DNA of 64,000 nt from Brevundimonas sp. (GCF_029946145.1 NZ_JAQSDY010000012.1:178806-242805), one strand, 5' to 3'; numbered from the stretch's first letter, positions 45,871-64,000 are shown. A program made the numbers and translations. Notes: generated by a model from the letters alone, not told the origin.

Positions 45871-47307
45871 CTAACCGCCGGGTGACAGAAGAACCCCGGG
45901 ATTCATGCGCCAGGACGGGTCAATGGCCGACTTGATCCGCCCGAACAGATCCAGCTCGACGGCGTCGACGACGCGATGGAACTCGTCACGCTTGTAGGTC
46001 CCGACCCCGTGTTCCGCGCTGATCGAACCACCCAAGGCAAGCGCGATGTCGTGCACGCGCGCCATGACCTCCGGAGCGTGTTTGAGGAAGGACGGCGGTT
46101 CATCGCCGGATGGCTGGATCACCGTGAAGTGGATGTTGCCATCTCCGATATGGCCGAACGACAGCGGCCGGCAGCCAGGCACGATTGTCCGCGCTACAGT
46201 GGAAGCTCGATCTATGAACTCGGGGACCGCCCCCAGCGGTACGGAAACGTCATGCTTGATGGACGCGCCCGCGCGCCGCTGCCCGTCGACGACGCCTTCG
46301 CGCAGGCGCCAGAGCTGGCTGCGTTGGCCTTCATTTTCGGCGAGCACAGCGTCGAGCGCGGCGCCCTTCGAAAGGGCCTGACCGATACCGGTCTCGAAGG
46401 CCGCCCGGAGGGAGCCCTGGTCCGCAGCTGTCGCGGCTTCGATCAGTACGTACCAAGGGAAGTCGCCCGGCAAAGGGTCCTGGGCGTCGAGAATGGCGGA
46501 AAGCGCGAGCTCCATTCCGATCCCCTCGATGAGTTCGCACGCCACGACGGCGTCGCCACAGGCCCCACGGACCTCGTTCAGAAGCGTCATGGCGGACGCC
46601 GGATCCGGCGTCGCGACAAGCGCGGTTTCGATCTGGCGCCAGGCGGGCGTCAGGCGCATCACCGCCGCCGTCACCACGCCAAGACCGCCCTCGGCGCCGA
46701 TGAAGAGCTGCTTCAGATCGTAGCCCATGTTGTGCTTGCGCAGGGCGCGCAGCCCGTTCCAGATCGAACCGTCCGGAAGGACTACCTCGAGGCCCATCAC
46801 ATTTTCGCGGCAGTTGCCGTAACGAAGGGCCCGGATGCCGCCGGCGTTGGTCGAGATGACCCCGCCGAGGGTGCAGCTTCCTTCCGCGCCCAAGCCCAGC
46901 GGAATGGCGAACCCCGCCTCGCGCGCCGCGGCCTGCAGGTCGGCGAGGACGCACCCCGCCTCGGCCGTGATCGAGGGCGTGAAGGCGTCCATAGAACGGA
47001 CGGCGGTCATGCGATCCAGGGAGAGCAGCAGGCATCTCTGCCGGCTTCTGGGGACCGACGCGCCGGTCAGCCCCGTATTGCCGCCCTGCGGAGTCACCGC
47101 GAGATCGTGCTCACAGGCCACCCGCAACAGCGAGGAGACTTCAGCCGTGGATGCGGGGCGGGCCACAGCGATCGCATCGCCCGTTTCCTTGCCCGTCCAG
47201 TCGGACAGGTAGGGAGCCATGGCGTCGGCGGCGTCCAGAAGGGCACCGGGGCTCACGCAGGCCGCGAGGGCTGCGAGCGAATCCGTGGTTGAATATTTCA
47301 TCGTCAC
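45871..47307 (-). CDS. FAD-linked oxidase (D-2-hydroxyglutarate dehydrogenase/GlcD-like)
   Basis: PQGGNTGL, TNAGG, GYDLKQLFIGAEG, HDVSVP, GHIGDGNIH, SAEHGVG. GTG 47307 overlaps the SDR stop; ATG 47301 is an alternative start. Confidence 0.9.
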   Translation of the reverse strand: MTMKYSTTDSLAALAACVSPGALLDAADAMAPYLSDWTGKETGDAIAVARPASTAEVSSLLRVACEHDLAVTPQGGNTGLTGASVPRSRQRCLLLSLDRMTAVRSMDAFTPSITAEAGCVLADLQAAAREAGFAIPLGLGAEGSCTLGGVISTNAGGIRALRYGNCRENVMGLEVVLPDGSIWNGLRALRKHNMGYDLKQLFIGAEGGLGVVTAAVMRLTPAWRQIETALVATPDPASAMTLLNEVRGACGDAVVACELIEGIGMELALSAILDAQDPLPGDFPWYVLIEAATAADQGSLRAAFETGIGQALSKGAALDAVLAENEGQRSQLWRLREGVVDGQRRAGASIKHDVSVPLGAVPEFIDRASTVARTIVPGCRPLSFGHIGDGNIHFTVIQPSGDEPPSFLKHAPEVMARVHDIALALGGSISAEHGVGTYKRDEFHRVVDAVELDLFGRIKSAIDPSWRMNPGVLLSPGG

Positions 47308-48083
47308 CTCATGACTCCGCCGCCGTCCACGACCAGCGTCTGGCCGGTCACGAACCCGCTCTCGTCGCCGGCGAAGAATGCGACCGCGCCCAGCAGATCC
47401 CGGGGCTCCTGATCGCGTGGGATGGCGCGCGCGGAGCGGGCCCGGGCCGACTGGACCTCGAGACCTTCCGCCCGGTGCAGGCGCACGCCGGAACTCAATG
47501 TGAAACCGGGCGCCACCGCGTTCACGGTGATTCCGTCGACGCCGACCTCGCGCGCCAATGCGGAGGTCATCGCCGTCACCGCCCCCTTGCTGGTGACGTA
47601 GTGAAGCATCGACGGAGGCGTCGAGAAGGCGGTCGCGGAGGTGATGTTGACGATGCGCCCGCGCCGTTGCGCTCGCATCGGAGCCAGGACGGCACGGCTG
47701 AACAGCCAGGTTCCCGTGACATTGACGTCCATGACTCGACGCCACTCCTGCGGATCGATAGCGTCGGCGGCGCCGCGGGTCAGGGTGGTGAACAGGCCGG
47801 CATTGTTCACCAGCACATCGATCCGACCGAAGCGCCTCAATGACTCCTGCACCGCGGCGTCGACGGCGGCCTGGTCCGCCACATCGGCCCGAATGCACAG
47901 GGCTTCGCCGTCCGCCCCACGAATGCGCTGGATCGCTTCGTCTGGCCAGGCGATGTCGCAAGCGGCGATCCTGTATCCGCGAGCGGCGAGATCGATCGCG
48001 ATCTCCAGTCCGATGCCTGACGCGGCTCCAGTGACCACGGCGACCGGGCTGGCGGCCTTTCGGCCGGCGTCAGAGGCGTTCAC
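47304..48083 (-). CDS. Short-chain dehydrogenase/reductase
   Basis: TGAASGIG, NNAG, YVTSK (YxxxK), TGQTLVVDGG. Confidence 0.93.
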   Translation of the reverse strand: MNASDAGRKAASPVAVVTGAASGIGLEIAIDLAARGYRIAACDIAWPDEAIQRIRGADGEALCIRADVADQAAVDAAVQESLRRFGRIDVLVNNAGLFTTLTRGAADAIDPQEWRRVMDVNVTGTWLFSRAVLAPMRAQRRGRIVNITSATAFSTPPSMLHYVTSKGAVTAMTSALAREVGVDGITVNAVAPGFTLSSGVRLHRAEGLEVQSARARSARAIPRDQEPRDLLGAVAFFAGDESGFVTGQTLVVDGGGVMR

Positions 48084-49309
48084 GCGGCCGGACTCGGCTC
48101 TAACCCGACCGCCTTCATCGAGACCGTCGGGTCAGCCAGCCGACCAGGGTCGATCGGTGTGCGCCGGCCGATCAGCTGTTTGCCGGCGATGAACTCCGGC
48201 GGGGCGTTGGCGGCCTCGACACAGACGATGCGATCGCCGCACAGGTGGAAGACCGCGAAGCGGCCGCTGTCGGTGTCGCCGCGAACGACCATGCGGTCGC
48301 CTTCGAACGGCAGGCCGGCGATCTGCAGCTTGATGTCGTACTGGTCGGACCAGAACCACGGGACTTCGGGCGGGGGCGGGGTCTTGCCGGTTATGGCGAA
48401 GGCGGCCTGACGGGCCTGCTCCAGCGCGTTCGGAACGCTCTCCAGCCGGAAGTGAAGGGCGTGGGCGGGGATGGGCCGGAAGGCCACGTCGCCGATGGCG
48501 TAGATGGACGGGTCCGAGGTCCGGCAGGCTTCGTCGACCACGACGCCGCCGGAGCCGCCGGCTTCGCAGGTCAGGCCGGCGTCGCGGGCGAGCGCGTCGT
48601 TCGCCAGGGCGCCGACACCGACCAGGATGACGTCGGCCTCGACCAGCTCGCCATCGGCCAGGCGCACGCCGCCATCTTCGAAACCCGTCGCCTCGACGCC
48701 GACCCGCACGTCCACGCCTTCGGCGCGATGGCGGGCGGTGAAGAAGGCCGACAGCGGTTCCGACGCCACACGCTGGAGGACGCGATCCATGCGCTCCAGG
48801 ATGACCACCTCGGCGCCGAGGGCGCGTGCGGAGGCGGCGGCCTCAAGCCCGACATGGCCGCCGCCGACGACGACCAGTCTGCGGCCCGGGCCCAGACTGG
48901 CCTTCAGCCGTTCGGCGTGGGCGATGGTGCGCAGCTCAAGGAGTTCCGGCCGGTCCGCTCCCGCGATCGGCAGGCGACGGGCCGTCGAGCCAGTGGCGAT
49001 GATCAGGACATCGTAGGGTTCGACCGATCCATCGTCGAAGGTCACGACGCGGGCCCCGGCGTCCAGCGAGGTCGCGCGAACGCCTGTGCGCAGTTCGATC
49101 GTGTGTTCGGGATAGAAGGTCTCGGGGCGAAGGAGGAGGGCGTCGAGATCGGCCTCGCCCTTGAGCCAGGCCTTGGAGAGCGGGGGGCGTTGGTAAGGCG
49201 CAACCGGCTCCTCGCCGGCCAGCACGATCCGTCCTTCGAATCCGGAACTGCGCAGGAACGCCGCCGCCGAACCGCCCGCATGACCCGCGCCGAGGATGAG
49301 CACCTTCAT
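48080..49309 (-). CDS. Glutathione-reductase-type ferredoxin reductase (LigXd/putidaredoxin reductase-like)
   Basis: GAGHAG, YQRPPLSK, GGGHVGLE, AIGD, LESV, PWFWSDQY. Confidence 0.92.
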   Translation of the reverse strand: MKVLILGAGHAGGSAAAFLRSSGFEGRIVLAGEEPVAPYQRPPLSKAWLKGEADLDALLLRPETFYPEHTIELRTGVRATSLDAGARVVTFDDGSVEPYDVLIIATGSTARRLPIAGADRPELLELRTIAHAERLKASLGPGRRLVVVGGGHVGLEAAASARALGAEVVILERMDRVLQRVASEPLSAFFTARHRAEGVDVRVGVEATGFEDGGVRLADGELVEADVILVGVGALANDALARDAGLTCEAGGSGGVVVDEACRTSDPSIYAIGDVAFRPIPAHALHFRLESVPNALEQARQAAFAITGKTPPPPEVPWFWSDQYDIKLQIAGLPFEGDRMVVRGDTDSGRFAVFHLCGDRIVCVEAANAPPEFIAGKQLIGRRTPIDPGRLADPTVSMKAVGLEPSPAA

Positions 49310-49318
49310 CGGCGGTTC

Positions 49319-49948
49319 CTATTCCGCGTCCGGTTGGCGATCCGGCCGGGCGTCGATGAAGGCGGGCAGGGCGGCGCAGGCGGCGTCGGCCCGCTCCAGC
49401 GACGGCCAGCGCATCTCGACCCCAAACCGTCTCGCGTTGCCGATCTGAGGGGCAAGGCAGACGTCCGCCAGGGTCGGACGGTCGCCAAAGGCGAACGGGC
49501 CGGCACGGTGCGCGATGAGGGCCTCAAGGGCGTCGAAGCCGCCCTCGATCACCGTGCGCGCCCAGGCCTGGACCTCATCTTCCGACTGATCGGACGCGGC
49601 CAGGGCTTTGAGCACCTTGAGATTCTGAAGCGGATGGATGTCGCAGGCGATAACCTGAGCGAAGGCGCGAACCTGAGCGCGTTGCACGGGATCGGCCGGG
49701 AGGAGGGGCGGCTCAGGATGCCGCTCATCCAGATATTCGCATATCGCCAGCGACTGGGTCAGGACCGAGCCGTCGTCGAGGGCGAGGCTGGGCAGGAGCC
49801 CCTGCGGATTGACGGCGAGATACTCCGGCCGGCGATGTTCGCCTTTCCGCAGGTGATGGTAGCGCCTGTCCGCCGTCAGCCCTTTCAGGTTCAGGGCGAT
49901 CCGAACGCGCCACGCCGCTGAAGAACGGAAATAGCCGTGCAGGAGCAT
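49319..49948 (-). CDS. maiA: GSH-dependent maleylpyruvate/maleylacetoacetate isomerase (zeta GST)
   Basis: YFRSSAAWRVRIAL, NPQGLLP, QSLAI, CDIHPLQNL. Confidence 0.92.
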   Translation of the reverse strand: MLLHGYFRSSAAWRVRIALNLKGLTADRRYHHLRKGEHRRPEYLAVNPQGLLPSLALDDGSVLTQSLAICEYLDERHPEPPLLPADPVQRAQVRAFAQVIACDIHPLQNLKVLKALAASDQSEDEVQAWARTVIEGGFDALEALIAHRAGPFAFGDRPTLADVCLAPQIGNARRFGVEMRWPSLERADAACAALPAFIDARPDRQPDAE

Positions 49949-49958: not shown

Positions 49959-50651
49959 TCAGGCCGCGGGCGGGCCGATGGTGACGGTCAGCTCGCCCAG
50001 CCCGGCGATCGCGCCAACCAGCACATCGCCCTGCACGACCGCGCCGACGCCGGCGGGGGTGCCGGTGTAGATCAGGTCACCCGGCTCCAGCCGGTAGAAG
50101 CGGGACACATGGGCGATCACCTCGGGCACCGACCAGATCAGTTCGGACAGGTCGCCGGTCTGTTTGCGGTCGCCGTTCACGGTCAGGGTGATGGCGCCCT
50201 TGGAGGCGTCGATCCCGGCTGCCGGATGGATCGGGCCGAGGGGCTTGGACTGTTCGACGTTCTTGCCGGTATCCCACGGCCGGCCGGCGTCGCGGGCGAC
50301 CAGCTGGAGATCGCGGCGGGTCATGTCGAGACCGACGGCATAGCCGTAGACCAGGCTCATCGCGTCGTCAGTCGAGACCTCGCGACCTGACCTGCCGATC
50401 GCGACCACCAGTTCGATCTCGTAGTGGTAGTTGGCCGTTTCTTGCGGATAGGCGATGACGCTGCCATCCGGGACGACGGTCTCGGCCCAGGCGGTGAAGA
50501 AGAAGGGCGGTTCGCGGTCCGGGTCCCTGCCCATTTCGCGCGCGTGGGCGGCGTAGTTGCGGCCGATGCAGAAGATGCGGCGGACCGGAAACGCCTTGCC
50601 GTCCGTGGTCGGGGCGAGAACGGGCGGCTGGGGTTCGAAGGTGAGGGTCAC
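49959..50651 (-). CDS. Fumarylacetoacetate-hydrolase family, fumarylpyruvate hydrolase (NagK-like)
   Basis: RRIFCIGRNYAAHAREMG, HYEIELVV, LDMTRRDLQ, GDLIYTGTPAGVG. GTG 50651 overlaps the gtdA stop. Confidence 0.9.
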   Translation of the reverse strand: MTLTFEPQPPVLAPTTDGKAFPVRRIFCIGRNYAAHAREMGRDPDREPPFFFTAWAETVVPDGSVIAYPQETANYHYEIELVVAIGRSGREVSTDDAMSLVYGYAVGLDMTRRDLQLVARDAGRPWDTGKNVEQSKPLGPIHPAAGIDASKGAITLTVNGDRKQTGDLSELIWSVPEVIAHVSRFYRLEPGDLIYTGTPAGVGAVVQGDVLVGAIAGLGELTVTIGPPAA

Positions 50652-51703
50652 GCGTTTTCTTCCCTGAAGAGGTTCAGTTTTTCCTGGCAGGCCCGGTCCG
50701 AGTAGCCGAACAAAACCAGGGTCTCTTCGGCCTCGAAGCGCAGACTGGTCCACGACGGCACGACGACCACGTCGCGCGACGCGAGCGACATCGGCTGGTC
50801 GTCGAGCCAGGCCCGGCCGGACCCCTCGACGACGACATAGATCGTGGCGTCGGTCGAACGGCGGGTCTTTGTCGCGAAGCCCTTTGGCAACAGCCGGACG
50901 TGGGCCGAAATCGTGGGCATGATCGAGCCGCCGTCGGCGGGGTTCAGGAACTCGAGGGCATGGCCCAGGTGCGGATCGGGTTCGGCCGCGCTCGCTAGCC
51001 GGTCAAGCGCAGGCCGCCATTCCGCGTAGGGATAGTGGAACAGGGGCTGATGCGCGGGGCGACGATCGGCGGCGCTACCGCGAAGGGGGCGCAGATTGTG
51101 GCCGTATCGGCTGGATGTGTCGCCGGGCGGGACAGTCTCGGGATGCTGATCCGCGCCGAGCTTCTCGGAGAAGCTGGCGTCGAAATGGCTGACGGTTGGA
51201 ATGTCGAGGCCGTCCAGCCAGATCATCGGACCGTCGGTCGGATTGCCGTGATCGTGCCACTGACCGCCTGGCGTCAGGACTAGGTCGAAGGGCCGCATGA
51301 CGGCTTTTTCGCCGTCGATGGCCGTATAGGCGCCTTCGCCCTCCATGACGAAACGCAGCGCGCACTGGGTGTGGCGATGGCAGGGCGCGACCTCGCCCGG
51401 CAGGATGAGCTGGAGCCCGGCGTAGAGGCTGGTGGTGATCCGCGAGGCGCCGGGCAGGCCGGGGTTCTCAAGGATCAGCACGCGGCGTTCGGCCTGGGCC
51501 GCGCTGATCAGGTCGCCGGCGCGCATCAGATAGCCGCGCGCGTCGTCGTAGCGCCAACGGTGCGCGACGACCGCCGAGGTCGGCTCAGGCGTCACAAGCG
51601 AGCTGAGCACTTCCCACAGCGGCGTCAGGCTGGCCGGGCGCATTTCGTCGTAGAGCGCCTGGAGCTGGCTGGACTGTTCGTTGCTGAGGACGGCGTGCGA
51701 CAT
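50648..51703 (-). CDS. gtdA: Gentisate 1,2-dioxygenase
   Basis: PLWEVL, AERRVLILENPG, LYAGLQLILPGEVAPCHRHT, WHDH, WLDGLDIP, MPTI. Confidence 0.93.
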   Translation of the reverse strand: MSHAVLSNEQSSQLQALYDEMRPASLTPLWEVLSSLVTPEPTSAVVAHRWRYDDARGYLMRAGDLISAAQAERRVLILENPGLPGASRITTSLYAGLQLILPGEVAPCHRHTQCALRFVMEGEGAYTAIDGEKAVMRPFDLVLTPGGQWHDHGNPTDGPMIWLDGLDIPTVSHFDASFSEKLGADQHPETVPPGDTSSRYGHNLRPLRGSAADRRPAHQPLFHYPYAEWRPALDRLASAAEPDPHLGHALEFLNPADGGSIMPTISAHVRLLPKGFATKTRRSTDATIYVVVEGSGRAWLDDQPMSLASRDVVVVPSWTSLRFEAEETLVLFGYSDRACQEKLNLFREENA

Positions 51704-51715: not shown

Positions 51716-53011
51716 TCAGATTTCGATGACGATGCGGTCGTCAATCGCCTTCACCCCGCCGATGCCCATGGCGTCGCAATAGGCGTCCCAGACCTGGGCC
51801 GGCTGTCCCGCCTGGAACATGAAGCGCTCCAGGTGTTTGCTCATCACAGGGTGCGCCCGATAGGTGTCGAGAGAAACTCCTTCGATCAGCAGGTCGCGCT
51901 CGGCGATCGGCAGGGATACGAAGGCGGCGACCTCGGGGTCGCGAATGACGCCCTTGGGGTCCTCGCCGTTTTCCACCGCGTCCATGTCGGTCATCAGCTG
52001 TTTGCGCAGCATCTGGATGCCGCGGTCGCTCAGGCCCAGCTTTTCCTTGGTGCGGTCGGCGACGACGCCCTGACCGACCCAGGCGATGAAGTCCTGGTTG
52101 ATCACATGGGTGCTGATCCAGCGGCCGGTTTCAGGGTCCTTGATCGGGCCGTGCCAGGTCGGGATGGTTTCCTGCACATAGGGCTCGGCGTCGTTCGGAA
52201 CCCGCGTATAGACCCACGAGATGCTGAGCGTGTTCTCATCGTCGATCGGCACGCGCCATTCGAAGTGATCGCCCAGGAAGAAGCAGTTGGGCAGCAGGCA
52301 GACGCGACCCACGGTCCACATCGAATGGTCCTCGGGCAAATCCTCGCGCTGGCGGCGGTAGATCAGTCCGTATTCGAACTCGTCGAACGCGACCTGCAGG
52401 TGTTTCGGACCCAGCTCGGCCATGGCGTCCGTCTGGCGCCGCGACCAGTTGGTGTGCATCCACTCGAAGTGGACCGGATCGATCGAGTTCTCCTGGCATT
52501 GCAGCCAGTTGCAGGGGATTTCGGAGATGATGATCTGGGTGAAGCCATTGGCCCAGGTGAAGGGCTCCCAGTTCGGCAGCTCAGGGGCCGGCAGGGGCCC
52601 CATATAGGTCCACAGCATGCCGGCGTGTTCGCGCACCGGATAGGCGGTGATCCGCACCTTGTCCTTGTACTTGGCGCGGGCGGCGACGGTGTCCTCGTAG
52701 GGCATTTCCACGCACTGGCCGGTCTCGTTGTAGGCCCAGCCGTGATAGTTGCAGCGCAGGCCGCACTTCTCCACGAAGCCGTACGACAGGTCGGCGCGGC
52801 GGTGGGCGCAGGCGCGCTGGACGAGGCCGTATTGTCCGGACAGGTCGCGATAAAGGACCAGGTCCTCGCCCATCAGGCGGATCGCCTTGATGCGGGTCTT
52901 GTCGTCGAACTCGGTGGCGCCGGCGATGGGAGTCCAGTGCCGGCGCAGCACGGCGCCCATGCGCGTGCCGGGGCCGACCCTGGTAAGCATTTCGTTGGTT
53001 TCAGCGTCCAA
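51716..53011 (-). CDS. ligXa: Rieske non-heme iron oxygenase, phthalate/VanA clade, LigXa (DDVA O-demethylase)-like
   Basis: Rieske CAH...CNYH, Fe site ENSIDPVHFEWMH, NQD. Long stretches (GEDLVLYRDLSG, KYKDKVRITAYPVR, GPLPAPELPNWEPF, DAEPYVQETIPTWHGPIKD) match my recollection of Sphingobium SYK-6 LigXa. Confidence 0.85.
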   Translation of the reverse strand: MDAETNEMLTRVGPGTRMGAVLRRHWTPIAGATEFDDKTRIKAIRLMGEDLVLYRDLSGQYGLVQRACAHRRADLSYGFVEKCGLRCNYHGWAYNETGQCVEMPYEDTVAARAKYKDKVRITAYPVREHAGMLWTYMGPLPAPELPNWEPFTWANGFTQIIISEIPCNWLQCQENSIDPVHFEWMHTNWSRRQTDAMAELGPKHLQVAFDEFEYGLIYRRQREDLPEDHSMWTVGRVCLLPNCFFLGDHFEWRVPIDDENTLSISWVYTRVPNDAEPYVQETIPTWHGPIKDPETGRWISTHVINQDFIAWVGQGVVADRTKEKLGLSDRGIQMLRKQLMTDMDAVENGEDPKGVIRDPEVAAFVSLPIAERDLLIEGVSLDTYRAHPVMSKHLERFMFQAGQPAQVWDAYCDAMGIGGVKAIDDRIVIEI

Positions 53012-53025
53012 AGCCAGGCTCCCTG

Positions 53026-54261: not shown

Positions 54262-54324
54262 GTCGCCTCCTTCACCGCTTTGATCCGGCTCCACTCGATG
54301 TGGGACGGCGTCCAGTCATCAGAG

Positions 54325-54353
54325 GTCATACCAATGGAAAGACGTCTGTTCAA
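54325..54353 (-). promoter_or_regulatory. Sigma70 promoter TTGAAC-N17-TATGAC overlapped by operator AGACGTCTG (54336-54351)
   Basis: Direct reading of the minus strand upstream of the monooxygenase-ligXa-gtdA operon. Confidence 0.75.
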
Positions 54354-54507
54354 TTGCCCTTTCAAAAAAATGCGGCCGCCCGGAATCCGCCCCATGAAGG
54401 GTTCTCATTTTATGGTGCTAGAATCCTCGCGTTATCAGCAATTTTGTGTGCCGGAGCTGCATATGAGCCTCCGCCGAAAATCGGACTAGCCCTCGAAGTT
54501 CGCGGAA

Positions 54508-54523
54508 TGTAATACGTCTGATT
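54508..54523. promoter_or_regulatory. Operator copy TGTAATACGTCTGATT upstream of the RraA/LigK-like gene
   Basis: The right 10 nt are identical to the perfect palindrome at 63611-63626. Confidence 0.6.
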
Positions 54524-54589
54524 AGTCGCTGAATCTGACGTGAAGTCGAAAGTCGCATCGTTCGTCGCGTATCAACGGGAAACCCAGCC

Positions 54590-55264: not shown

Positions 55265-55276
55265 TCGGGGTCGGCG

Positions 55277-55777
55277 TCAGTCGTCGTCGAGGACGATGGG
55301 CGCGCGGGTCACGCCGTTGAAGCGGTCCACGAACTTCCCCAGCAGGCGCAGGAACTCCGCTCCTTCTTCCGGCGTGAAGGCCGACAGCGCGCGCTCCTGA
55401 GCGGTCCGCGCGGCGTGACGCAGGTTCTCCAGCTTCCTCTCGCCCTTGCCGGTCAGGACGATGACCTTGCGGCGACGGTCGGCGCGGTCCTCGACTCTCA
55501 CGATCAGGCCTTCGCTTTCGAGGCGCTTGACCACGAGGCCGGTGGTCGACCGGTCCAGCCCGACCTTCTTCGACAGGCCGATCTGGTCCAGGTCCTCGCA
55601 GCACCGGAGGATCACCAGGACGCCGTACTGGGTCGTCGTGACGTTGAACTCGGCGCTCTCTTCCATGAACAGCGAGACGCTGATCTGGTGCGCCCGGCGC
55701 AGCAGGAAGCCGGGGCGTTTGTAGAGTGCGTCGACGCTGTTGATGTCGGATGCGCTTGTCGCGGAACGTGCAGGCAA
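55277..55777 (-). CDS. MarR-family regulator (start uncertain; TTG 55777 chosen)
   Basis: PGFLLRRAHQ, TTTQYGVL, GLDRST...RLESEGLIVR...DRR. Confidence 0.88.
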   Translation of the reverse strand: MPARSATSASDINSVDALYKRPGFLLRRAHQISVSLFMEESAEFNVTTTQYGVLVILRCCEDLDQIGLSKKVGLDRSTTGLVVKRLESEGLIVRVEDRADRRRKVIVLTGKGERKLENLRHAARTAQERALSAFTPEEGAEFLRLLGKFVDRFNGVTRAPIVLDDD

Positions 55778-55889
55778 GTCGGAGCCCCGGTTTCTCGAAC
55801 TCGCGCCAGATAGACGCTTCGATTCAAGGCGATCAGTACACTGCGTCTGTGACACTGTCGAATGCGGCGAGGCGGCGCGGGGACGGCCT

Positions 55890-57281: not shown

Positions 57282-59011
57282 TCGGATATGATGTTCAGCA
57301 GAACCTGTCGCCGATCCTCGCGGACCATGCGGATGGCGCGTCGGATCGCGTCGGGAACGGCGGCCGGATCCTCGATGCGTTCGCCGTAGCCGCCGGACGC
57401 TTCGACGTACTTCTCGAAGTCGGGGATGGGGCGCAGATCGCTGAGCGGAGCCGGTTTGGGTCCGCGCGCCGCATGGCCTTCGGGGAAGACGCCGATGGTC
57501 GAGGATTGCACCGCGCCCCAGCGGGCGTTGTTGCAGATGATCGTCAGCAGGGGCGTCTCATGCATCGCGATGGCCTGGTGGCAGGCCGCGGGATTGCAGA
57601 ACAGATATGCGCCGTCGCCCATGGTGCAGACGACCGGCCGGTCGGGGGCGGCGAGGGCGGCGCCGATGGCGGCGGGCATGCCCCAGCCAAGGCCTGCCGC
57701 CGGAGAGTGCATGTAGAAGCTGCCGGCCGTTTTCGCGTCGAATATCTCGCGGTCGACCCAGTACTCGTTCACGACGATCGCGTCGGCGGGAAGCGCCTCG
57801 TTGAGGCAGAGGTTCAGCCAGTCCTTGTTCATTCGCGGGGTGTCGGCCAGCGGGGCGAGACGTTTGCGCCGACGCTCCCGCCGACCTTCGGCAAGCGTGG
57901 CGATCTTCGCCGCCCGGTCAGAGAGGCGTTTTTCCTCCACGATCTCGGCTAGGGCCTCGGTCAGCGGTCCCAACAACTGGCCGGCGGAGCTCGTGACCCA
58001 CAGCTCGCCGCGGAAGGACCGCAGCGGATAGTCGAGGAACAGCGGATCGACGCCCACATGGACGATCCGGGTCTCCGCCCGGGGCTCCCGCGTTTCCGGC
58101 AGCCAGGGCACCTCAGTCTCCAGACAGATCAGCAGATCGGCCTCGCCGAGATACGGATGCACCGACTGGCCGAGGTGATAGGGATGATCGGACGAGGCGC
58201 AGACATACCGGGACTTGGCCTCCACGATGCCGATGCCGAATCGTTCGCAGAGCTCGCCTAGCGGCGCGACGGTTTCCGGGTCGCGACCCGAGGCAGACGT
58301 CACCAGCAGTGGGCATTTGGCGGCGTCGATCATCTCCGCTAGCTTCCGGATTGCTTCGGGATCCGGAGCGGCGCGGCTGGTCGGAGCCAGCGGCTTGGCC
58401 TCGACGGTGTGGGGTTCGGACTGCGCCGACAGCACCTCGCGCGGGAGGGTCAGATAGACCGGTCCGGCGGGCGCGGCCTGGGCGGTCATCAGTCCGCGAT
58501 CAAGGACGTCCTCGAGGTTCAGGCCTGAACGCAGTTCGTAGTCCCACTTGACCAGTTCGCGCAGCATACCGGCCTGGTCGTACATTTCCTGCGCCCAGTG
58601 GATCGCGCCGCTGCGGGCGCCCAAGGGACCCTTCTCGTAGAGAGGCGTGCGGCCGGCCATGAACAGCATGGGTATTTCGTCGCGCTTGGCGTTCATCACG
58701 CCGCAGACGGCGTTGGCGGCCCCCACGCTGACGTGAACCATGACCGCCTGCGTCCGACCCGTGATCATGGTGTAGCCATGGGCCATGCCGACGACGAGAT
58801 TCTCGTGCGTGCCAATGATCGGCGCCGGGAAGTCGAGGTGGGAGAGCGACTGGCGAGCGTAGGCCTCAGCGATCGGGGCCGCGTCCGTGCCACTGTTGAT
58901 GAAGAGGTAGTCGACGCCCTTCTGTTTCAGCAGCGCCAGGAAGGTTTCCGCGACGGCTTCGGATTGCGGCAGAACTTGCGTGTCGCGCCGTTCCTTGGAC
59001 TGTACGGGCAT
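57278..59011 (-). CDS. Thiamine-diphosphate-dependent enzyme (decarboxylase/lyase superfamily)
   Basis: THENL (catalytic Glu), GDGAY...NN ThDP/Mg motif, GLGWG. ATG 59011 has a GGAGG SD. Confidence 0.9.
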   Translation of the reverse strand: MPVQSKERRDTQVLPQSEAVAETFLALLKQKGVDYLFINSGTDAAPIAEAYARQSLSHLDFPAPIIGTHENLVVGMAHGYTMITGRTQAVMVHVSVGAANAVCGVMNAKRDEIPMLFMAGRTPLYEKGPLGARSGAIHWAQEMYDQAGMLRELVKWDYELRSGLNLEDVLDRGLMTAQAAPAGPVYLTLPREVLSAQSEPHTVEAKPLAPTSRAAPDPEAIRKLAEMIDAAKCPLLVTSASGRDPETVAPLGELCERFGIGIVEAKSRYVCASSDHPYHLGQSVHPYLGEADLLICLETEVPWLPETREPRAETRIVHVGVDPLFLDYPLRSFRGELWVTSSAGQLLGPLTEALAEIVEEKRLSDRAAKIATLAEGRRERRRKRLAPLADTPRMNKDWLNLCLNEALPADAIVVNEYWVDREIFDAKTAGSFYMHSPAAGLGWGMPAAIGAALAAPDRPVVCTMGDGAYLFCNPAACHQAIAMHETPLLTIICNNARWGAVQSSTIGVFPEGHAARGPKPAPLSDLRPIPDFEKYVEASGGYGERIEDPAAVPDAIRRAIRMVREDRRQVLLNIISE

Positions 59012-59046
59012 GTTGGCCTCCCGGGCTGTATCGAGTTTCGCCCTAT

Positions 59047-59073
59047 ATGATAAGACGTCTGCCTGGTTGCCAA
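59047..59073 (-). promoter_or_regulatory. Operator GATAAGACGTCTGCCT (59049-59064) between TTGGCA and TATCAT boxes of the ThDP-MFS operon
   Basis: AGACGTCTG core; the promoter spacer is short (15 nt), so the promoter call is weaker than the operator call. Confidence 0.6.
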
Positions 59074-59114
59074 GGAAAAACTGCCGCCGCACCCGATTGT
59101 GAAGCGAGAAAGCC

Positions 59115-59155
59115 TTGCAAGCTCCGGTTCAGGCTGGATATACAGACGTCTGCGC
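59115..59155 (+). promoter_or_regulatory. Promoter TTGCAA-N18-TATACA overlapped by operator CAGACGTCTG (59143-59152)
   Basis: Perfect 10-bp palindrome about 55 nt before the ligY-like ATG. Confidence 0.7.
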
Positions 59156-59207
59156 AATCACGTCGTGATGGGTGCTAAGCTTACGAAGAGCGGGTGCGGA
59201 GACAACA

Positions 59208-60212
59208 ATGATCATCGATTGCCATGGCCACGTCAGCGCTCCCGCGGAACTGTGGGCCTACAAGGCGTCGGTGCTGTCGCATCGGGGCTCCCATGGTCGA
59301 GGCGGCGTCCGCGTCTCCGACGATGACATCCGTCGCGCCGTCAACAAGGTCGAAATGGCGCCCTGCGGCCACCTCGACATGCTGGAGCGCCATGGCACCG
59401 ACCTGCAGCTGATTTCCCCGCGTCCCTTCCAGATGATGTCCAGCTTCGAGCCGGGCCGGGTGGTCCACTGGTTCGTGGAAGAGTGCAACACGATCATCCA
59501 TCGCCAGACGCAGCTGTTCCCGGACAAGTTCGTCGGCGTCTGCGGGCTGCCCCAGGTGGCGGGCGAGCCGATAGAGAATACCTTCGCGGAACTGGATCGC
59601 TGCATCGGCCTGGGCTTCAAAGGCTGCCTGCTGAACCCCGACCCATATGAAAATACGCGGACTGACCAGCCGGGCCTCGGCGATCGCTACTGGTATCCGC
59701 TCTACGAGAAGCTCTGCGAACTGGATATTCCAGCGCACATACACGCGACGGGGTCGCGGTCAGACCGGACGCCCTACAGCCTGCACTTCATCAATGAGGA
59801 GACGATCGCCGTCTTCAACCTCGTGAACTCCAGCGTGCTGGACGACTTCCCCTCGCTGAAGATCGTGGTCAGCCACGGCGGCGGCGCCATACCCTATCAG
59901 CTGGGCCGGTTCGAGGCAGGTTCGATCCATCCGGGATCAAAGCGCCGGTTCTCAGAGGGGATGCGCAAGCTCTACTACGACACAGTGCTCTACACCGAGG
60001 GCGCGCTGCGGTTGCTGATCGAGACGGTCGGCGTGGACCGGTGTCTGTTCGGGTCGGAATGCCCGGGCGTAGGCTCCAAGGTCGTGGACGGTCACGACCA
60101 CACCATGGACCACATCGCACCGACCATCGCGAAGTTCGATTTCCTGAGCGACGCCGACAAGAAGAAGATCTTCGAGGACAACGCCCGCGCCGTCTTCCGG
60201 CTGGACCAGTAG
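59208..60212 (+). CDS. ligY: Amidohydrolase-superfamily meta-cleavage compound hydrolase, LigY-like
   Basis: MIIDCHGHVSAP..LWAYKAS..HRGSHGRGG, ISPRPFQMM, LPQVAGEPIEN, PYSLHFINEETIA, SHGGGAIPYQLGRFE, LFGSECPGVG match my recollection of SYK-6 LigY throughout. Confidence 0.85.
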   Translation: MIIDCHGHVSAPAELWAYKASVLSHRGSHGRGGVRVSDDDIRRAVNKVEMAPCGHLDMLERHGTDLQLISPRPFQMMSSFEPGRVVHWFVEECNTIIHRQTQLFPDKFVGVCGLPQVAGEPIENTFAELDRCIGLGFKGCLLNPDPYENTRTDQPGLGDRYWYPLYEKLCELDIPAHIHATGSRSDRTPYSLHFINEETIAVFNLVNSSVLDDFPSLKIVVSHGGGAIPYQLGRFEAGSIHPGSKRRFSEGMRKLYYDTVLYTEGALRLLIETVGVDRCLFGSECPGVGSKVVDGHDHTMDHIAPTIAKFDFLSDADKKKIFEDNARAVFRLDQ

Positions 60213-60221: not shown

Positions 60222-61250
60222 ATGGCCGAGATCGTTCTGGGCGCCTGGACCACACACGGGCCAACTCTTTCGACGACGCCCGAAGAGTGGCTGCTGCGCC
60301 TGCCCGCCGACAAGGCGCGCAAGGACCACCCGTTCCGGGGGGCAACCTATGACTTTCCCGCCCTCGTCGAACTGCGCAAAGACGAGGACCTGGCCGCCCA
60401 GGCGACCCTGGAAGAGCGCACCCGGCGGTCGCTCCTCTGTCGCGCCGCCATCGATCGGCTGGCGGACATCTATGAGAAAGCTCGCGTCGATGTGGCGGTC
60501 ATCTTCGGCAACGATCAGCACGAAATCTTTCTGGATGACCTCATCCCGGCCCTGACCGTCTTCAACGGCGAGACCATCTGGAACGCCCCGGCGACCGAGG
60601 CGCAGGCCGCCATATCGCCACCGGGCATCCACGTATCGGAGTGGGGGCATAAGCCGCCTCAGTACACCGAATATCCCGGCCACCCCGAGCTGGCCAATCG
60701 CATCATCCGGCAGGCCATCGCAGACGGATTCGACGTGGCCAAGTCGTCGAAGCTGCCCGAGAATCCGGGTAATTGGCATAGCGGTATCGGGCACGCCTTC
60801 GGCTTCATCTATCGCCAGATCATGCGCGACAAGCCGGTCGCCAACGTTCCGTTGTTCGCCAACACCTTCTTCCCGCCCAACCAGCCGACGGCGCGGCGGT
60901 GTTTCGCTTTCGGCCAGGCGGTCGGCCGGGCGATCCGCGCCTGGGACTCCGATGCTCGCGTCGCGGTTTTCGGGTCGGGCGGCATGACGCATTTCGTCAT
61001 CGACGAGGCCTTCGACGCCAAGATCATCGACGCGATCCAGGCTCGCGATGCCGAAACACTCTGCTCCATCGGCGAGGAATACTTCCAGGCGGGAACCTCC
61101 GAGCTGAAGAACTGGATCGCGGCTGCGGGCTGTCTCTTCGAGACCGACCTGAGCGGCGATCTGGTCGATTATGTGCCCTGCTATCGCTCGGAGGCGGGGA
61201 CCGGCACGGCCAACGGCTGGATTGCGTGGAACAAGAAGGCGGGAGCATGA
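60222..61250 (+). CDS. ligZ: Class III (LigB-fold) extradiol dioxygenase, LigZ-like
   Basis: MAEIVLG..THGP, GNDQ, HAFGFIYRQIMRD, PPNQPT.RRC, SGGMTHFVIDE, FQAGTSELKNWI, YVPCYRSEAGTG match my recollection of SYK-6 LigZ; no LigA-type subunit nearby. Confidence 0.85.
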   Translation: MAEIVLGAWTTHGPTLSTTPEEWLLRLPADKARKDHPFRGATYDFPALVELRKDEDLAAQATLEERTRRSLLCRAAIDRLADIYEKARVDVAVIFGNDQHEIFLDDLIPALTVFNGETIWNAPATEAQAAISPPGIHVSEWGHKPPQYTEYPGHPELANRIIRQAIADGFDVAKSSKLPENPGNWHSGIGHAFGFIYRQIMRDKPVANVPLFANTFFPPNQPTARRCFAFGQAVGRAIRAWDSDARVAVFGSGGMTHFVIDEAFDAKIIDAIQARDAETLCSIGEEYFQAGTSELKNWIAAAGCLFETDLSGDLVDYVPCYRSEAGTGTANGWIAWNKKAGA

Positions 61251-61909
61251 GCGACGAAATCCTTATCCGCCTGGCGCGCCTTGACGCCTGCGCCGTTTCC
61301 GACGCTCTCGATCAGGTCGGGGCGCCGCCATCGGTGACGGGACTGAAGGCCCTGTCCGCGCGGCAGCGCATTTCCGGTCGGGTCACGACCGTCCGTCTGG
61401 CCGCCGGCAAACCGCTTGAGGGTGCGCCGTCCAGACACTTGTGCACGACGGCGATCGACAGCTCGGACGCCGGCGCTGTGATCGTGGTCGAACAGCGCAC
61501 GGGCGTCGAATGCGCCGGCTGGGGCGGCATCCTGTCGAACGCGGCGCGCGGCCGGGGTATTTCAGGCGTCATCGTCGAGGGTCTGGCCCGCGACATCGAC
61601 GAGGCGGCCGACATCGGCTTCCCGGTCTATGCGCGCGGCGGTACGGCACGCACAGCACGCGGCCGCATCCATGAGGCGGAGACCGGCGGGACGATCCAGG
61701 TCGGCGATACCACGGTCTCGAACGGCGACTATGTCGTCGCCGATTCCAGCGGCGCGGCCTTCGTGCCGGCCGACCGGATCGAGGCGGTGCTGGCGGCGGC
61801 CGAGCGGATCGCGGTCAAGGAAGCGGCGATGACCAAGGCGGTCATGTCCGGTCAGCCGGTCAGCGACGTGATGGGCGCCAGCTACGAACACCTTCTGGAA
61901 CAGGGCTGA
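61247..61909 (+). CDS. RraA-family protein (HMG aldolase-like), paralogue 2
   Basis: DACAVSDALD, AGWGGILS, EGLARD, GDYVVADSSG. ATG 61247 overlaps the ligZ stop. Confidence 0.88.
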   Translation: MSDEILIRLARLDACAVSDALDQVGAPPSVTGLKALSARQRISGRVTTVRLAAGKPLEGAPSRHLCTTAIDSSDAGAVIVVEQRTGVECAGWGGILSNAARGRGISGVIVEGLARDIDEAADIGFPVYARGGTARTARGRIHEAETGGTIQVGDTTVSNGDYVVADSSGAAFVPADRIEAVLAAAERIAVKEAAMTKAVMSGQPVSDVMGASYEHLLEQG

Positions 61910-61910: not shown

Positions 61911-62564
61911 ATGACCGACGCCAACGTAGAACGGGTCGGCCGCATCGACACAGCGACCCTCAGCGACGCGCTCGACAAGCTGGGGATCCCCGGCCAGTGC
62001 CTGGGCGTGAAGCCGCTGGACCACGGGTTCCGGCTCGCGGGTCGCGCCTTCACCGTCACCTACGCCCCGGCGGCGCCGGGTGGGACGGTCGGCGACTTCA
62101 TCGACGACGTGCCGGACGGTCATGTGGTCATGATCGACAACGGCGGACGGCCCGATGCGACTGTCTGGGGGGACATCATGACCCTGTGCGCGCATCAGCG
62201 AAAACTGGGCGGGACGGTGATCGACGGCGCGTGCCGCGATACTCATCTGGCGCTCGATCTCGGCTATCCGATGTACAGCCGCAGCTATTCGATGCGGACC
62301 GGCAAGGACCGGGTCCAGCTGGAAGCGGTCGGTCAGGTCGTCAACATCGGCGATGCGCGCGTCAGTCCCGGCGACCTGGTGCGGGGCGATTCCGACGGGG
62401 TCGTGGTCATCCCGCGCGCCCGGGAGGCCGAGGTGCTCGACATCGCCGAGGCGATCGAGGTGGCGGAGGGCCGTATTCGCGAGCTGATCTCGTCCGGCAT
62501 GCGGCTGGATGACGCCCGCAAGCAGCAGGGCTATCACCTGCTCCAGCGCCGCGAGAAGCCCTGA
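61911..62564 (+). CDS. RraA-family protein (HMG aldolase-like), paralogue 3
   Basis: DTATLSDALD, LAGRAFTV, TVWGDIM, IDGACRD, GDLVRGDSDGV. Confidence 0.9.
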   Translation: MTDANVERVGRIDTATLSDALDKLGIPGQCLGVKPLDHGFRLAGRAFTVTYAPAAPGGTVGDFIDDVPDGHVVMIDNGGRPDATVWGDIMTLCAHQRKLGGTVIDGACRDTHLALDLGYPMYSRSYSMRTGKDRVQLEAVGQVVNIGDARVSPGDLVRGDSDGVVVIPRAREAEVLDIAEAIEVAEGRIRELISSGMRLDDARKQQGYHLLQRREKP

Positions 62565-62566: not shown

Positions 62567-63601
62567 ATGGCCTGGCGGGTCGTCGCAACAGCGAGCCTGG
62601 GCCCACACGAGGGCGTGATCGCGCGCCTGGTTGAGGCGGGCTGCGAGATCGACCGGCTGCCGGCCGCCGCCACGACGTGGACTCCCGAACTGATCGCCCG
62701 CTACGCCTCCACCGCCGACGCCTATGTCGGAACCTTCCGGGGGATCGGACTGCCCCGCGAGGTGATCGAGGCCTCGCCCCGGGCCCGCGTGATCACCTCG
62801 CCGATCATCGGCACCGAATATATCGACGTCAAAGCGGCGACCGAGGCGGGCGTTCTGGTCGCACACGGGGCCATGTCAGAGAATTTCGACGGCATGGCCG
62901 AGGCCGGCGTCATGCTGATCGCCGCGACCCGCAAGGCGCTGGCCGGCAAGACCGCCGCCGTAAGGGCGGGAGAATGGAAGACCGCTCCGGCGGGCCGCCT
63001 GGTGCTGGAATCCACCATCGGCATCCTGGGCCTGGGCCGGATCGGGCAGGGGGTCGCGCGCCGGCTGAACGGCTGGGACTGCGAGATCATCGCCTGCGAC
63101 CCCTATGTCGATCCCGCGGCGGCGGCGAAGCTGGATGTGGAGCTGGTCGGCATCGACGACCTGTTCCGCCGGTCGGATGTCGTGGTCATCCTTGTGACCC
63201 TGACGCCGGAGACACGGCACATCGTCAACGCCGACAGGATCGCCGCGATGAAGCGCGGAAGCGCCATCGTCAACATCGGCCGGGGCGGGTGCATGGACGA
63301 GGCAGCGGTTATCGCCGCGCTCGACTCCGGCCAGCTCGCGGCGGTCGCCATCGACGCCTGGGAGTCCGAACCGCCGGCGCCCGACAATGCGCTGCGCAGC
63401 CATCCGGCGGTCATCGCCACCTCGCACGACGTCGGCCATTCCACGGACCTGTACGCCCGTATTCCGGTCGTGGCCGCCGAGAACACCCTGGCCGCGCTCG
63501 AGGGGCGGCGGCCCGACTACCTGCATAACCCGGCGGCGTTGCCGGCCTGGCGCGAACGCTGGAACGACGCGCCCCAACCCGCCGCAGCCGGAGCCTTATG
63601 A
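62567..63601 (+). CDS. D-isomer-specific 2-hydroxyacid dehydrogenase family
   Basis: GILGLGRIG, DPY, VNIGRG (Arg), DAWESEP (Glu), TSHDVG (His). Confidence 0.88.
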   Translation: MAWRVVATASLGPHEGVIARLVEAGCEIDRLPAAATTWTPELIARYASTADAYVGTFRGIGLPREVIEASPRARVITSPIIGTEYIDVKAATEAGVLVAHGAMSENFDGMAEAGVMLIAATRKALAGKTAAVRAGEWKTAPAGRLVLESTIGILGLGRIGQGVARRLNGWDCEIIACDPYVDPAAAAKLDVELVGIDDLFRRSDVVVILVTLTPETRHIVNADRIAAMKRGSAIVNIGRGGCMDEAAVIAALDSGQLAAVAIDAWESEPPAPDNALRSHPAVIATSHDVGHSTDLYARIPVVAAENTLAALEGRRPDYLHNPAALPAWRERWNDAPQPAAAGAL

Positions 63602-63607
63602 CGTCCC

Positions 63608-63626
63608 TATAATCAGACGTCTGATT
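63608..63626. promoter_or_regulatory. Perfect 16-bp palindromic operator AATCAGACGTCTGATT (63611-63626) overlapping TATAAT (63608-63613)
   Basis: Direct reading; upstream of the final aldehyde dehydrogenase gene. Confidence 0.8.
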
Positions 63627-63689
63627 TCTTGATTGACCAGCCGCTGTGAGCGTCGCGACCTGACGACGAAGCGGGAAAAGGAAACGCCA

Positions 63690-64000
63690 GTGACCGACGC
63701 CTTCACCTATCCGGCCCCCAAGCTCTTCATCGCGGGCGTGTGGCGCATGGCCGGCGACGGCGCGACCCAGCCGGTCCTGAACCCCGCGACCGGGGAGACC
63801 ATCGGCGACCTGCCCGTCGCCGGTGAGGCCGACCTGGACGAGGCGCTGGCCGCCGCCGACGCGGGCTTCAAGGTGTGGCGCAAGACCTCGGCCTACGACC
63901 GCGCCCGCATACTGCATGACGCCGCGCGGCTGATGCGCGAACGCAGCCGCTACATCGGTTCGGTCAGCACGACCGAACAGGGCAAGCCGCTGGCGGAATC
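63690..64000 (+). CDS. NAD-dependent aldehyde dehydrogenase (SSADH/KGSADH-like), N-terminal part, truncated by the window edge
   Basis: GTG 63690 after an AAGGA SD: KLFIAGVW...VLNPATGETIG...ADLDEALAAA..GF..W...SAYDRARIL...TTEQGKPLAE. Confidence 0.9.
   Translation, partial: MTDAFTYPAPKLFIAGVWRMAGDGATQPVLNPATGETIGDLPVAGEADLDEALAAADAGFKVWRKTSAYDRARILHDAARLMRERSRYIGSVSTTEQGKPLAE

Follow-up and report, generated by a model that had tools for sequence, protein, structure and literature searches.

Positions 45871-64000 of a 64,000-nt stretch of Brevundimonas sp. DNA (GCF_029946145.1, NZ_JAQSDY010000012.1:178806-242805; hereafter the window) contain an island of 18 tightly packed genes which, judging from their sequences, probably form a MarR-controlled regulon for a lignin biphenyl of the 5,5'-dehydrodivanillate (DDVA) type, i.e. 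a 5,5'-linked, 2,2'-dihydroxy compound, with a gentisate branch included, in a Brevundimonas-like alphaproteobacterium. Few bonds in lignin are as recalcitrant as the 5-5' biphenyl links, and to our knowledge the single well-studied bacterial route for them is that of one Sphingobium strain. 5-Carboxyvanillate (5CVA), the monomer that such a route releases from DDVA, is 3-methoxy-5-carboxysalicylate and is a major monomer in kraft lignin that has been depolymerised by oxidation. The island encodes homologues of the LigXa oxygenase, the LigZ dioxygenase and the LigY hydrolase of DDVA catabolism, and a shared candidate operator together with recurrent synteny supports the view that this LigXYZ-type biphenyl cluster is tied to a gentisate module.

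Gene families were assigned with Pfam and NCBIfam profiles (Table 1), with E-values ranging from 1e-18 to 1e-180, so that chance is of no concern. All the families that a first-pass annotation, made from the DNA sequence alone, had named in this region were found, and the coordinates it gave for LigXa, LigY and LigZ were exact. One minus-strand operon (54261 to 45871) runs from a flavin monooxygenase (FADMO) through LigXa, gentisate 1,2-dioxygenase (GDO), an FAH-family hydrolase, a glutathione S-transferase-type isomerase (GST), a ferredoxin reductase and a short-chain dehydrogenase (SDR) to a GlcD-like oxidase. A second minus-strand operon (59011 to 55277) encodes a thiamine diphosphate (ThDP)-dependent enzyme, a major facilitator superfamily (MFS) transporter and a MarR-family regulator. 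Divergent from it is a plus-strand unit composed of LigY, LigZ, two RraA-like proteins (RraA2 and RraA3) and a 2-hydroxyacid dehydrogenase, which is followed by an aldehyde dehydrogenase (ALDH) gene that has its own promoter and is cut by the end of the window. A third RraA-like gene, RraA1, is divergent from the FADMO operon. Within each operon, genes are separated by 0-15 nt or overlap: the GTG start of the FAH-family gene (50651) overlaps the GDO stop, the SDR start overlaps the stop of the ferredoxin reductase, the ATG of the GlcD-like oxidase (47301) is 3 nt past the SDR stop, the ATG of RraA2 overlaps the LigZ stop, and RraA3 abuts RraA2.

The sequences show that LigXa, LigZ and LigY have true relatives in the window. 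LigY matches the structures of LigY from Sphingobium lignivorans SYK-6 (5VN5/6E6I) over its full length (331 aa) with 568 bits and 73.6% identity, compared with 196 bits for the next family, the LigJ hydratase, and 24 bits for LigW. Its His6/His8 motif (MIIDCHGH) is conserved, and this assignment, which the first-pass annotation had made from motifs, is secure as judged by homology. Since LigZ and LigXa have no solved structure and SYK-6 was not among the genome-scan matches listed, we used as a proxy a sphingomonad metagenome locus, L081 (L001-L172 being the labels of relative loci), with the gene order LigZ-RraA-RraA-LigY-LigXa and a LigY that is 90.3% identical to that of SYK-6. Over their full length, the proteins of the window are 60.5% (LigZ), 58% (LigXa), 75% (LigY), 59% (RraA2) and 61% (RraA3) identical to those of L081, which lends support to the LigZ and LigXa calls as well. 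LigXa also shares 50% identity with the deposited LigX of SYK-6 (entry P0276, labelled as LigX of Sphingomonas paucimobilis), and this figure is a lower bound because the entry looks frameshifted in two stretches: P0276 departs from all relatives at residues ∼125-135 and 265-300, in a pattern typical of frameshift errors. In alignments, the Rieske CxH...CxxH and the iron-binding DxxHxxxxH motifs of LigXa are intact, and LigZ, whose gene adjoins LigY, keeps the equivalents of LigB His195 and Glu242. The LigXa family is a large continuum of thousands of sequences without two clean clades. In all nine loci with enough flank, LigXa relatives that are 60-88% identical adjoin LigY/LigZ homologues, and the protein of the window is a probable O-demethylase of DDVA or of a close biaryl. 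The HcaD/AndAa-type ferredoxin reductase (326 and 300 bits with NCBIfam models), which is kept in L168 (84%) and L088 (73%), would by homology be the electron donor of this Rieske oxygenase, in the role of LigXd.

Two irregularities were seen among the relatives. In Pigmentiphaga (L086, 14404-15683), a LigXa-like gene beside a LigB-fold gene is split into a Rieske part of 218 aa and a LigXa_C part of 208 aa; it is probably a broken copy, with two intact copies nearby. In L168, LigZ (11015-12040) is 74% identical to that of the window and its neighbours are 90-95% identical, which hints at recombination within the operon.

The regulatory tie between the two modules is based on an 8-bp palindrome, AGACGTCT, which occurs four times in the 64 kb against 0.52 copies expected, a number reached by none of 100 shuffles. 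All four copies lie within promoter gaps of the island (Table 1), and a copy with one mismatch (TACGTCTG, at 54513) is present 70 nt upstream of RraA1. Sites at equivalent places were found in L082, L088, L089, L168/169 and L001, with two extra copies in L168 between a second MFS gene and a TonB-dependent receptor gene. In L085, from Polymorphobacter, the palindrome is 53 nt upstream of LigY. In L172, whose proteins are 49-82% identical to those of the window and whose gene order differs, it precedes both the LigY operon and a separate GDO-FAH-FADMO-MarR operon. The palindrome is found in all eight loci with an orthologue of the island MarR and is missing from four loci without one (L081, L170, L171 and L086); the MarR orthologues (49-91% identical) are present in every palindrome locus long enough to show MarR. 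These findings make AGACGTCT a candidate MarR operator, common to the biphenyl and gentisate modules, to which the regulator would bind, and they give direct sequence support to the earlier proposal that the region is co-regulated and, together with the recurrent synteny described below, to its link with the gentisate module. The exact 8-mer alone carries information, a relaxed 10-mer with two mismatches being at chance level, and scans of the window for sigma-70 promoters and terminators gave matches no more numerous than in shuffled controls. One further copy of the palindrome, in the Bordetella metagenome-assembled genome (MAG) L083, was rejected as an operator; it falls within a long hairpin that separates convergent genes and was read as a terminator.

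The gentisate module is complete. GDO (538.9 bits with TIGR02272, cut-off 442.1) and the MaiA-type isomerase (263.7 bits with TIGR01262, cut-off 171) score above the cut-offs of their models, and their genes are contiguous in one operon with that of the FAH-family hydrolase, which is 230 aa long in L082 and L168. GDO is 91% identical to its counterparts in L082, L088 and L168, and 57 and 52% identical to those in L085 and L172, respectively. Genes for FADMO, GDO and FAH, in some cases with GST, accompany LigXa, LigY and LigZ in four lineages that differ in gene order: the Brevundimonas-like group (the window, L082, L088, L089 and L168), the Bordetella MAG L083, which is cut by a contig end, Polymorphobacter megasporae L085, and L172. 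In addition, a Pseudomonadota MAG (L012, 2116-15075) combines a LigZ-like protein and a LigY (65%) with an FAH-family protein, a GDO-like cupin (214 bits) and a monooxygenase resembling 3-hydroxybenzoate 6-hydroxylase (3HB6H; 292 bits). The last three are non-orthologous to those of the window, which suggests that the biphenyl-to-gentisate logic was assembled independently. L012 also encodes a distant Rieske oxygenase and a peptide-type ABC importer.

The flavoprotein that would feed this module belongs to PRK07538 (526 bits, over the cut-off), a family in which there appears to be no characterised member. With 147.8 bits against a cut-off of 459, it is not a 3HB6H equivalog, and it corresponds to neither of the canonical feeder hydroxylases, 3HB6H and salicylate 5-hydroxylase. 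Its best match in the Protein Data Bank (PDB) is PhzS (2RGJ/3C96, 261 bits); vanillate 1-hydroxylase, 6-hydroxynicotinate 3-monooxygenase and salicylate hydroxylase come next, and all four are decarboxylating hydroxylases. Lys91 is present in six of six island-linked copies and in none of 78 unlinked ones, with few clade-specific residues overall.

Could the two modules be neighbours without functional meaning, LigXYZ feeding LigW/protocatechuate genes elsewhere in the genome and the trio degrading 3-hydroxybenzoate or salicylate through an ordinary gentisate pathway? The trio does score as canonical, most FADMO-family genes have no Lig genes near them, three loci (SYK-6-like L081, L170 and L086) have LigXYZ without GDO, and only the part of the genome in the window was seen. 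However, the genes for LigXa and its reductase form part of the gentisate operon, spaced by 0-15 nt, the palindrome stands at the promoters of both modules in the window as well as in L172, with its different gene order, the linkage recurs in four lineages with a non-orthologous rebuild in L012, and FADMO falls far short of the 3HB6H model. We regard two independent pathways as quite unlikely.

In the single regulon that we favour, homology predicts the upper steps. LigXa, with the reductase of the island and a ferredoxin encoded beyond the window, would O-demethylate one ring, LigZ would open the resulting catechol, and LigY would hydrolyse the cleavage product to 4-carboxy-2-hydroxypentadienoate (CHPD) and a salicylate-type acid, which for DDVA would be 5CVA. 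LigY-type hydrolysis of the cleavage product of a 2,2'-dihydroxybiphenyl always yields a salicylate. The lower steps are suggested by gene linkage, and we infer that the second half of the dimer is handled by different chemistry, as was proposed earlier. FADMO, acting instead of LigW, would add a hydroxyl group para to the phenol and, were 5CVA the substrate, release CO2. Starting from a salicylate-type product, para-hydroxylation with loss of the 5-carboxyl group would give 3-methoxygentisate, a plausible substrate for GDO, and GDO, the glutathione-dependent isomerase and the FAH-family hydrolase may then convert it to pyruvate and a methoxy-C4 diacid (by our own derivation, a methoxyfumarate-type diacid). 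The three RraA-like proteins may hydrate CHPD and split the product into two pyruvates, RraA2/RraA3 catalysing a hydratase or tautomerase step and RraA1 acting as an aldolase for 4-hydroxy-4-methyl-2-oxoglutarate (HMG).

Taken as a whole, this lower pathway (ipso-hydroxylation of 5CVA and loss of CO2 by the PhzS-like FADMO, cleavage of 3-methoxygentisate by a dedicated GDO, isomerase and hydrolase, thus bypassing LigW, vanillate demethylation and the protocatechuate 4,5 route, and conversion of CHPD to HMG by RraA2/RraA3) is a tentative proposal, which we rate as distinctly possible yet short of probable. A phmmer search of the 64 kb found no LigW-type or second Amidohydro_2 protein, no second Rieske or LigB gene was found in the window, and none of three 21-kb relative loci (L082, L168 and L085) has an Amidohydro_2 gene beyond LigY. 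An extra Amidohydro_2 protein of L172 was rejected as LigW, having no PDB match at 1e-10. In the literature that we searched, the only fates described for 5CVA are decarboxylation by LigW/LigW2 or, as proposed in Paenibacillus, by UbiD, and no bacterial link between 5CVA and gentisate was found.

The substrate could also differ from DDVA while the logic stays the same, for example a 2,2'-dihydroxy-3,3'-dimethoxy biaryl that lacks the 5,5'-carboxyls or carries other side chains; in that case the LigY product would be 3-methoxysalicylate, which FADMO would simply hydroxylate at position 5. Such a substrate would suit LigXa and LigZ proteins that are only 50-60% identical to the sphingomonad enzymes, as well as the breadth of the LigXa family, and the presence of a ThDP enzyme and an ALDH, both accessory, hints at reactions on side chains. 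Flanking genes of relatives point the same way: a BenAB-like dioxygenase in L082, and FerA/FerB-like genes (NDP-forming acyl-CoA synthetase and enoyl-CoA hydratase) that adjoin LigXa or LigY in L081, L083, L085 and L170, are not found in the window, and may link 5-5' diferulate-type substrates to the pathway. On the other hand, a LigY that is 74% identical to a DDVA-pathway enzyme suggests a very similar cleavage product, and the closest structural relatives of FADMO are decarboxylating hydroxylases. We consider a substrate other than DDVA unlikely, with a chance that is nonetheless real.

The position of LigXa raises a further alternative, in which this oxygenase acts on a single-ring product, O-demethylating 5CVA or methoxygentisate, and another enzyme makes the catechol for LigZ. 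In the window, L083 and L085, the LigXa gene is indeed in or beside the FADMO/GDO operon and not next to LigY/LigZ, and a single-ring demethylation would account for the methoxy group. Set against this, LigXa is the last gene of a LigY-LigZ-RraA-RraA-RraA-LigXa operon in L172 and abuts LigY in L081, L015, L086 and L171, and the minimal island of L168 encodes no other oxygenase able to make the catechol. This alternative is very unlikely in our judgment, and the DDVA-type biphenyl remains our preferred substrate for LigXa.

Several points weigh against a biphenyl regulon with a gentisate branch. The scheme leaves the methoxy group without explanation after ring cleavage. LigXa and LigZ were compared through the proxy L081, or through an old and apparently frameshifted LigX entry, and not with SLG_07770 and SLG_07720. 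The gentisate module is present in only ∼4 of 7 independent LigXa-type lineages, and the SYK-6-like L081 is without it. LigW, LigAB or a vanillate demethylase could be encoded elsewhere in the genome, and the pairing of MarR with AGACGTCT is correlative. The island-linked FADMO copies cluster together, in a neighbour-joining tree without support values. Finally, the FADMO family is highly conserved and widespread: in a metagenome scan centred on it, 75 of 80 relatives (62-68% identity) were in unrelated contexts, so that the family alone gives no substrate call, and the expectation of a Lig-specific enzyme was not borne out. These relatives (L092-L167), when their neighbour sequences were read, mostly stood beside an ECF sigma/anti-sigma-like pair and carboxymuconolactone-decarboxylase-like and DUF1080-like genes. 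ThDP enzymes 36-44% identical to that of the window accompany FADMO proteins (65-68% identical) in the Lig-free metagenome loci L090, L105, L106, L121, L131, L134 and L136, sometimes with a MarR gene; in L106, L121, L131 and L136 the ThDP gene is immediately upstream of FADMO on the same strand. The ThDP-FADMO pair thus seems older than the island.

The RraA-like proteins fall into two kinds. RraA1 is just below the cut-off of NF006731 (176.8 bits, cut-off 179), matches the HMG/CHA aldolase 3NOJ over its full length (120 bits) and conserves the catalytic Arg-Asp pair (GVRD). RraA2 and RraA3 keep this pair and score far below the same cut-off (61-81 bits), and the structure nearest to both is the uncharacterised 3K4I (154 bits for RraA3). 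Their homologues (44-59 and 60-69% identity, respectively) accompany LigY in most LigY-type loci across phyla, RraA2 being found with LigY in ∼16 of 23 loci. The pair is located between LigZ and LigY in L081 and L002, and three RraA genes are consecutive in L011, L013, L016 and L172. In the SYK-6 pathway, the hydration of CHPD is listed as a step with no identified enzyme and the final step as an HMG aldolase (PMC12673573), which makes RraA2/RraA3, through their gene linkage, a concrete candidate for CHPD hydration. The locus tags of SYK-6 ligZ (07720) and ligY (07750) (PMC12997858) would leave room for exactly two genes between them. RraA genes may already have been mentioned in the SYK-6 literature.

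The nearest named relative of the island is on a 3.4-Mb contig of Brevundimonas sp. (L082), in which the genes are in the same order and the proteins 71-95% identical, in keeping with the Caulobacteraceae-like host guessed in the first-pass annotation. L168/L169, whose LigY is 95% identical, represent a shorter island with the units FdR-GST-FAH-GDO-LigXa-FADMO (FdR, ferredoxin reductase), RraA1, MarR-MFS and LigY-LigZ-RraA2-RraA3, followed by genes for a Fer2 ferredoxin, a second MFS transporter and a TonB-dependent receptor. This core gene set is conserved across relatives. The ThDP enzyme, SDR, GlcD-like oxidase, 2-hydroxyacid dehydrogenase and ALDH, which had previously been counted as part of the route, are accessory because they are missing from L168 (and SDR and the GlcD-like gene also from L088), and these five genes would be additions to the regulon. 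The ThDP enzyme is present in L001, L082, L088 and L089, and scores just 100-108 bits against 2-hydroxyacyl-CoA lyase and benzoylformate decarboxylase. The GlcD-like oxidase scores 220 bits with the GlcD model, under its cut-off, and the ALDH is 95% identical to a 480-aa ALDH of L082. Relatives of the MFS transporter (35-38% identical) adjoin LigY/LigZ in Acidobacteriota and Verrucomicrobiota loci.

The idea of one self-contained route holds only in part, and within the window the island is not self-contained: there is no ferredoxin gene in the 64 kb, and in the relatives L082 and L168 a 105-aa Fer2 gene lies downstream of the cluster, beyond the equivalent of the window end. The window most probably continues past 64000 as L082 does, which would place the ferredoxin ∼6 kb beyond its end. 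In L082, the stretch after ALDH (14483-21011) begins with BenA/BenB-like subunits of an aromatic-acid 1,2-dioxygenase (463 and 140 bits, under equivalog cut-offs), which are followed by an SDR, a 253-aa protein without a family, a TauE-like permease, the 105-aa Fer2 ferredoxin and a second MFS transporter. The BenAB-like block is an insertion, given that L168 passes directly from RraA3 to Fer2-MFS and the TonB-dependent receptor. The SDR of the window is 62% identical to the one after the BenAB-like genes (L082:17849-18607), which suggests a duplicated or relocated gene of diol-dehydrogenase type. The left border of the island is sharp, γ-aminobutyrate transaminase and succinate-semialdehyde dehydrogenase genes occupying 42867-45655. 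G+C content is 0.64-0.65 at 52000-56000 and 58000-60000 compared with ∼0.69-0.71 in the flanks, a dip that would fit horizontal acquisition of the core. No integrase, insertion sequence element or tRNA was seen at the island borders, and no tRNA or Rfam family was found in the 64-kb window.

Table 1. Genes of the island and copies of the palindrome (window coordinates)
Feature	Coordinates	Strand	Profile or score	Remark
GlcD-like FAD-linked 2-hydroxyacid oxidase/dehydrogenase	45871-47301	-	PF01565 + PF02913	Accessory; closes minus-strand operon
SDR	47304-48083	-	adh_short, 178 bits	Accessory
Ferredoxin-NAD+ reductase	48080-49309	-	Pyr_redox_2 + Reductase_C	Predicted role of LigXd
Glutathione-dependent maleylpyruvate/maleylacetoacetate isomerase (MaiA-type GST)	49319-49948	-	TIGR01262	
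FAH-family hydrolase	49959-50651	-	PF01557, 193 bits	Probable (substituted) fumarylpyruvate hydrolase
GDO	50648-51703	-	TIGR02272	
LigXa-family Rieske oxygenase	51716-53011	-	Rieske + LigXa_C domains	
PhzS-like class A flavin monooxygenase (FADMO)	53026-54261	-	PRK07538	
AGACGTCT	54340-54347			FADMO/RraA1 divergent gap; 79 nt upstream of FADMO start
RraA1, HMG/CHA-aldolase-like	54590-55264	+	NF006731	
MarR-family regulator	55277-55903	-	PF01047	Predicted role of DdvR
DHA2-type MFS transporter	55890-57281	-	MFS_1, 174 bits; EmrB subfamily, 178 bits	Putative DdvK role
ThDP-dependent enzyme	57278-59011	-	PRK08327, 607 bits	Accessory
AGACGTCT	59053-59060			42 nt upstream of ThDP start
AGACGTCT	59144-59151			57 nt upstream of LigY start
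LigY, amidohydrolase-superfamily C-C hydrolase	59208-60212	+	73.6% to SYK-6 LigY	
LigZ-like class III (LigB-fold) extradiol dioxygenase	60222-61250	+	PF02900	
RraA2	61247-61909	+	PF03737	First of RraA-like pair
RraA3	61911-62564	+	PF03737	Second of RraA-like pair
D-isomer-specific 2-hydroxyacid dehydrogenase	62567-63601	+	PF02826, 176 bits	Accessory
AGACGTCT	63615-63622			Immediately past TATAAT box, upstream of ALDH; equivalent site in L082 at 14409
ALDH, 5' part	∼63690-64000	+	PF00171	Accessory; runs off window

A position outside the sphingomonad model, as the first-pass annotation had it, holds for the host, which is Brevundimonas-like, and does not hold as a mark of rarity. Among the matches listed in a GTDB scan with LigY, LigY-type genes (at least 55% identity) accompanied by LigZ and an RraA pair were found in Cupriavidus, Paraburkholderia, Ramlibacter, Hydrogenophaga, Hyphomonadaceae, Caenibius, Acidobacteriota and Verrucomicrobiota, and many LigY-type loci carry automatic JGI labels as DDVA genes. 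With such clusters in Beta- and Alphaproteobacteria, Acidobacteriota and Verrucomicrobiota, an occurrence outside sphingomonads is not unusual. A DDVA route published for Paenibacillus likewise lies outside sphingomonads (PMC12673573). Similar LigY-type clusters are thus widespread.

The spread of LigY-type clusters over several phyla of soil and freshwater bacteria is relevant to the question of which organisms degrade condensed lignin in nature. Provided that the gentisate branch exists, it would represent a second, oxygen-dependent means of removing 5CVA, and a compact set of ∼13 genes, equipped with a dedicated regulator and operator, would be available for transfer to production hosts. 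For the step of the model pathway that is listed without an enzyme, the RraA pair offers a concrete candidate, and a biosensor that responds to biphenyls could be built on AGACGTCT and MarR. The island thus yields two enzyme hypotheses that are open to direct test and one candidate regulator-operator pair.

Among known systems, the chemistry proposed for FADMO, ipso-hydroxylation with loss of CO2, is like that of PhzS and of decarboxylating class A hydroxylases such as vanillate 1-hydroxylase (8X38), although the match to PhzS is moderate. RraA1 resembles the HMG/CHA aldolases (3NOJ; LigK/ProA/GalC) in its full-length match and its Arg-Asp pair, and HMG, the substrate that it would be expected to use, arises by hydration of CHPD; RraA1 differs in being just under the NCBI cut-off, and RraA2/RraA3 are from another RraA subgroup, of which 3K4I is the sole solved member. 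The predicted logic matches that of the dibenzofuran/2,2',3-trihydroxybiphenyl route, in which a hydrolase releases salicylate that is then converted to gentisate or catechol: a 2,2',3-trihydroxybiphenyl core is opened by an extradiol dioxygenase, C-C hydrolysis yields a salicylate, and para-hydroxylation prepares this for gentisate-type cleavage. The enzymes differ, in that the dibenzofuran route employs an unrelated BphC-type dioxygenase and an α/β-hydrolase on a substrate without methoxy or carboxyl groups. From nag/xln-type gentisate pathways, of which the island has all three enzymes (GDO and MaiA above NCBI curated equivalog cut-offs), it is set apart by a PhzS-like feeder that is neither 3HB6H nor a NagGH-type salicylate 5-hydroxylase, by the LigXa oxygenase in the operon, and by a substrate that is likely a 3-methoxy-substituted gentisate.

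In the pathway proposed for Paenibacillus sp. B2 (mhqPOD), DDVA would be degraded by a demethylase of the azoreductase type, with MhqO as the dioxygenase, UbiD in the decarboxylation that yields vanillate, and UxuA as the hydratase (PMC12673573). It is similarly a non-sphingomonad route without LigW, in which CHPD would be removed by a hydratase and an RraA-family HMG aldolase (PMC12673573), but its enzymes are non-homologous to those of the island, the RraA aldolase family excepted. With the DDVA system of SYK-6 (LigXa/Xc/Xd, LigZ, LigY, LigW/LigW2, DdvK, DdvR and DdvT), the island has in common a homologous Rieske oxygenase (the predicted O-demethylase), LigB-fold extradiol dioxygenase and amidohydrolase-type C-C hydrolase. 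MarR and MFS genes are part of the SYK-6 DDVA cluster (PMC6874591) as they are of the island, a TonB-dependent receptor is encoded in the island relative L168, and the SYK-6-like L081 has its two RraA-like genes between ligZ and ligY. The island differs in its Caulobacterales host, in identities of 50-74%, in the lack of LigW in the window, and in the palindrome, which is missing from L081. Moreover, its reductase gene is clustered, whereas ligXc and ligXd are unlinked in SYK-6, and its LigXa and reductase share an operon with a flavin monooxygenase and the full gentisate trio.

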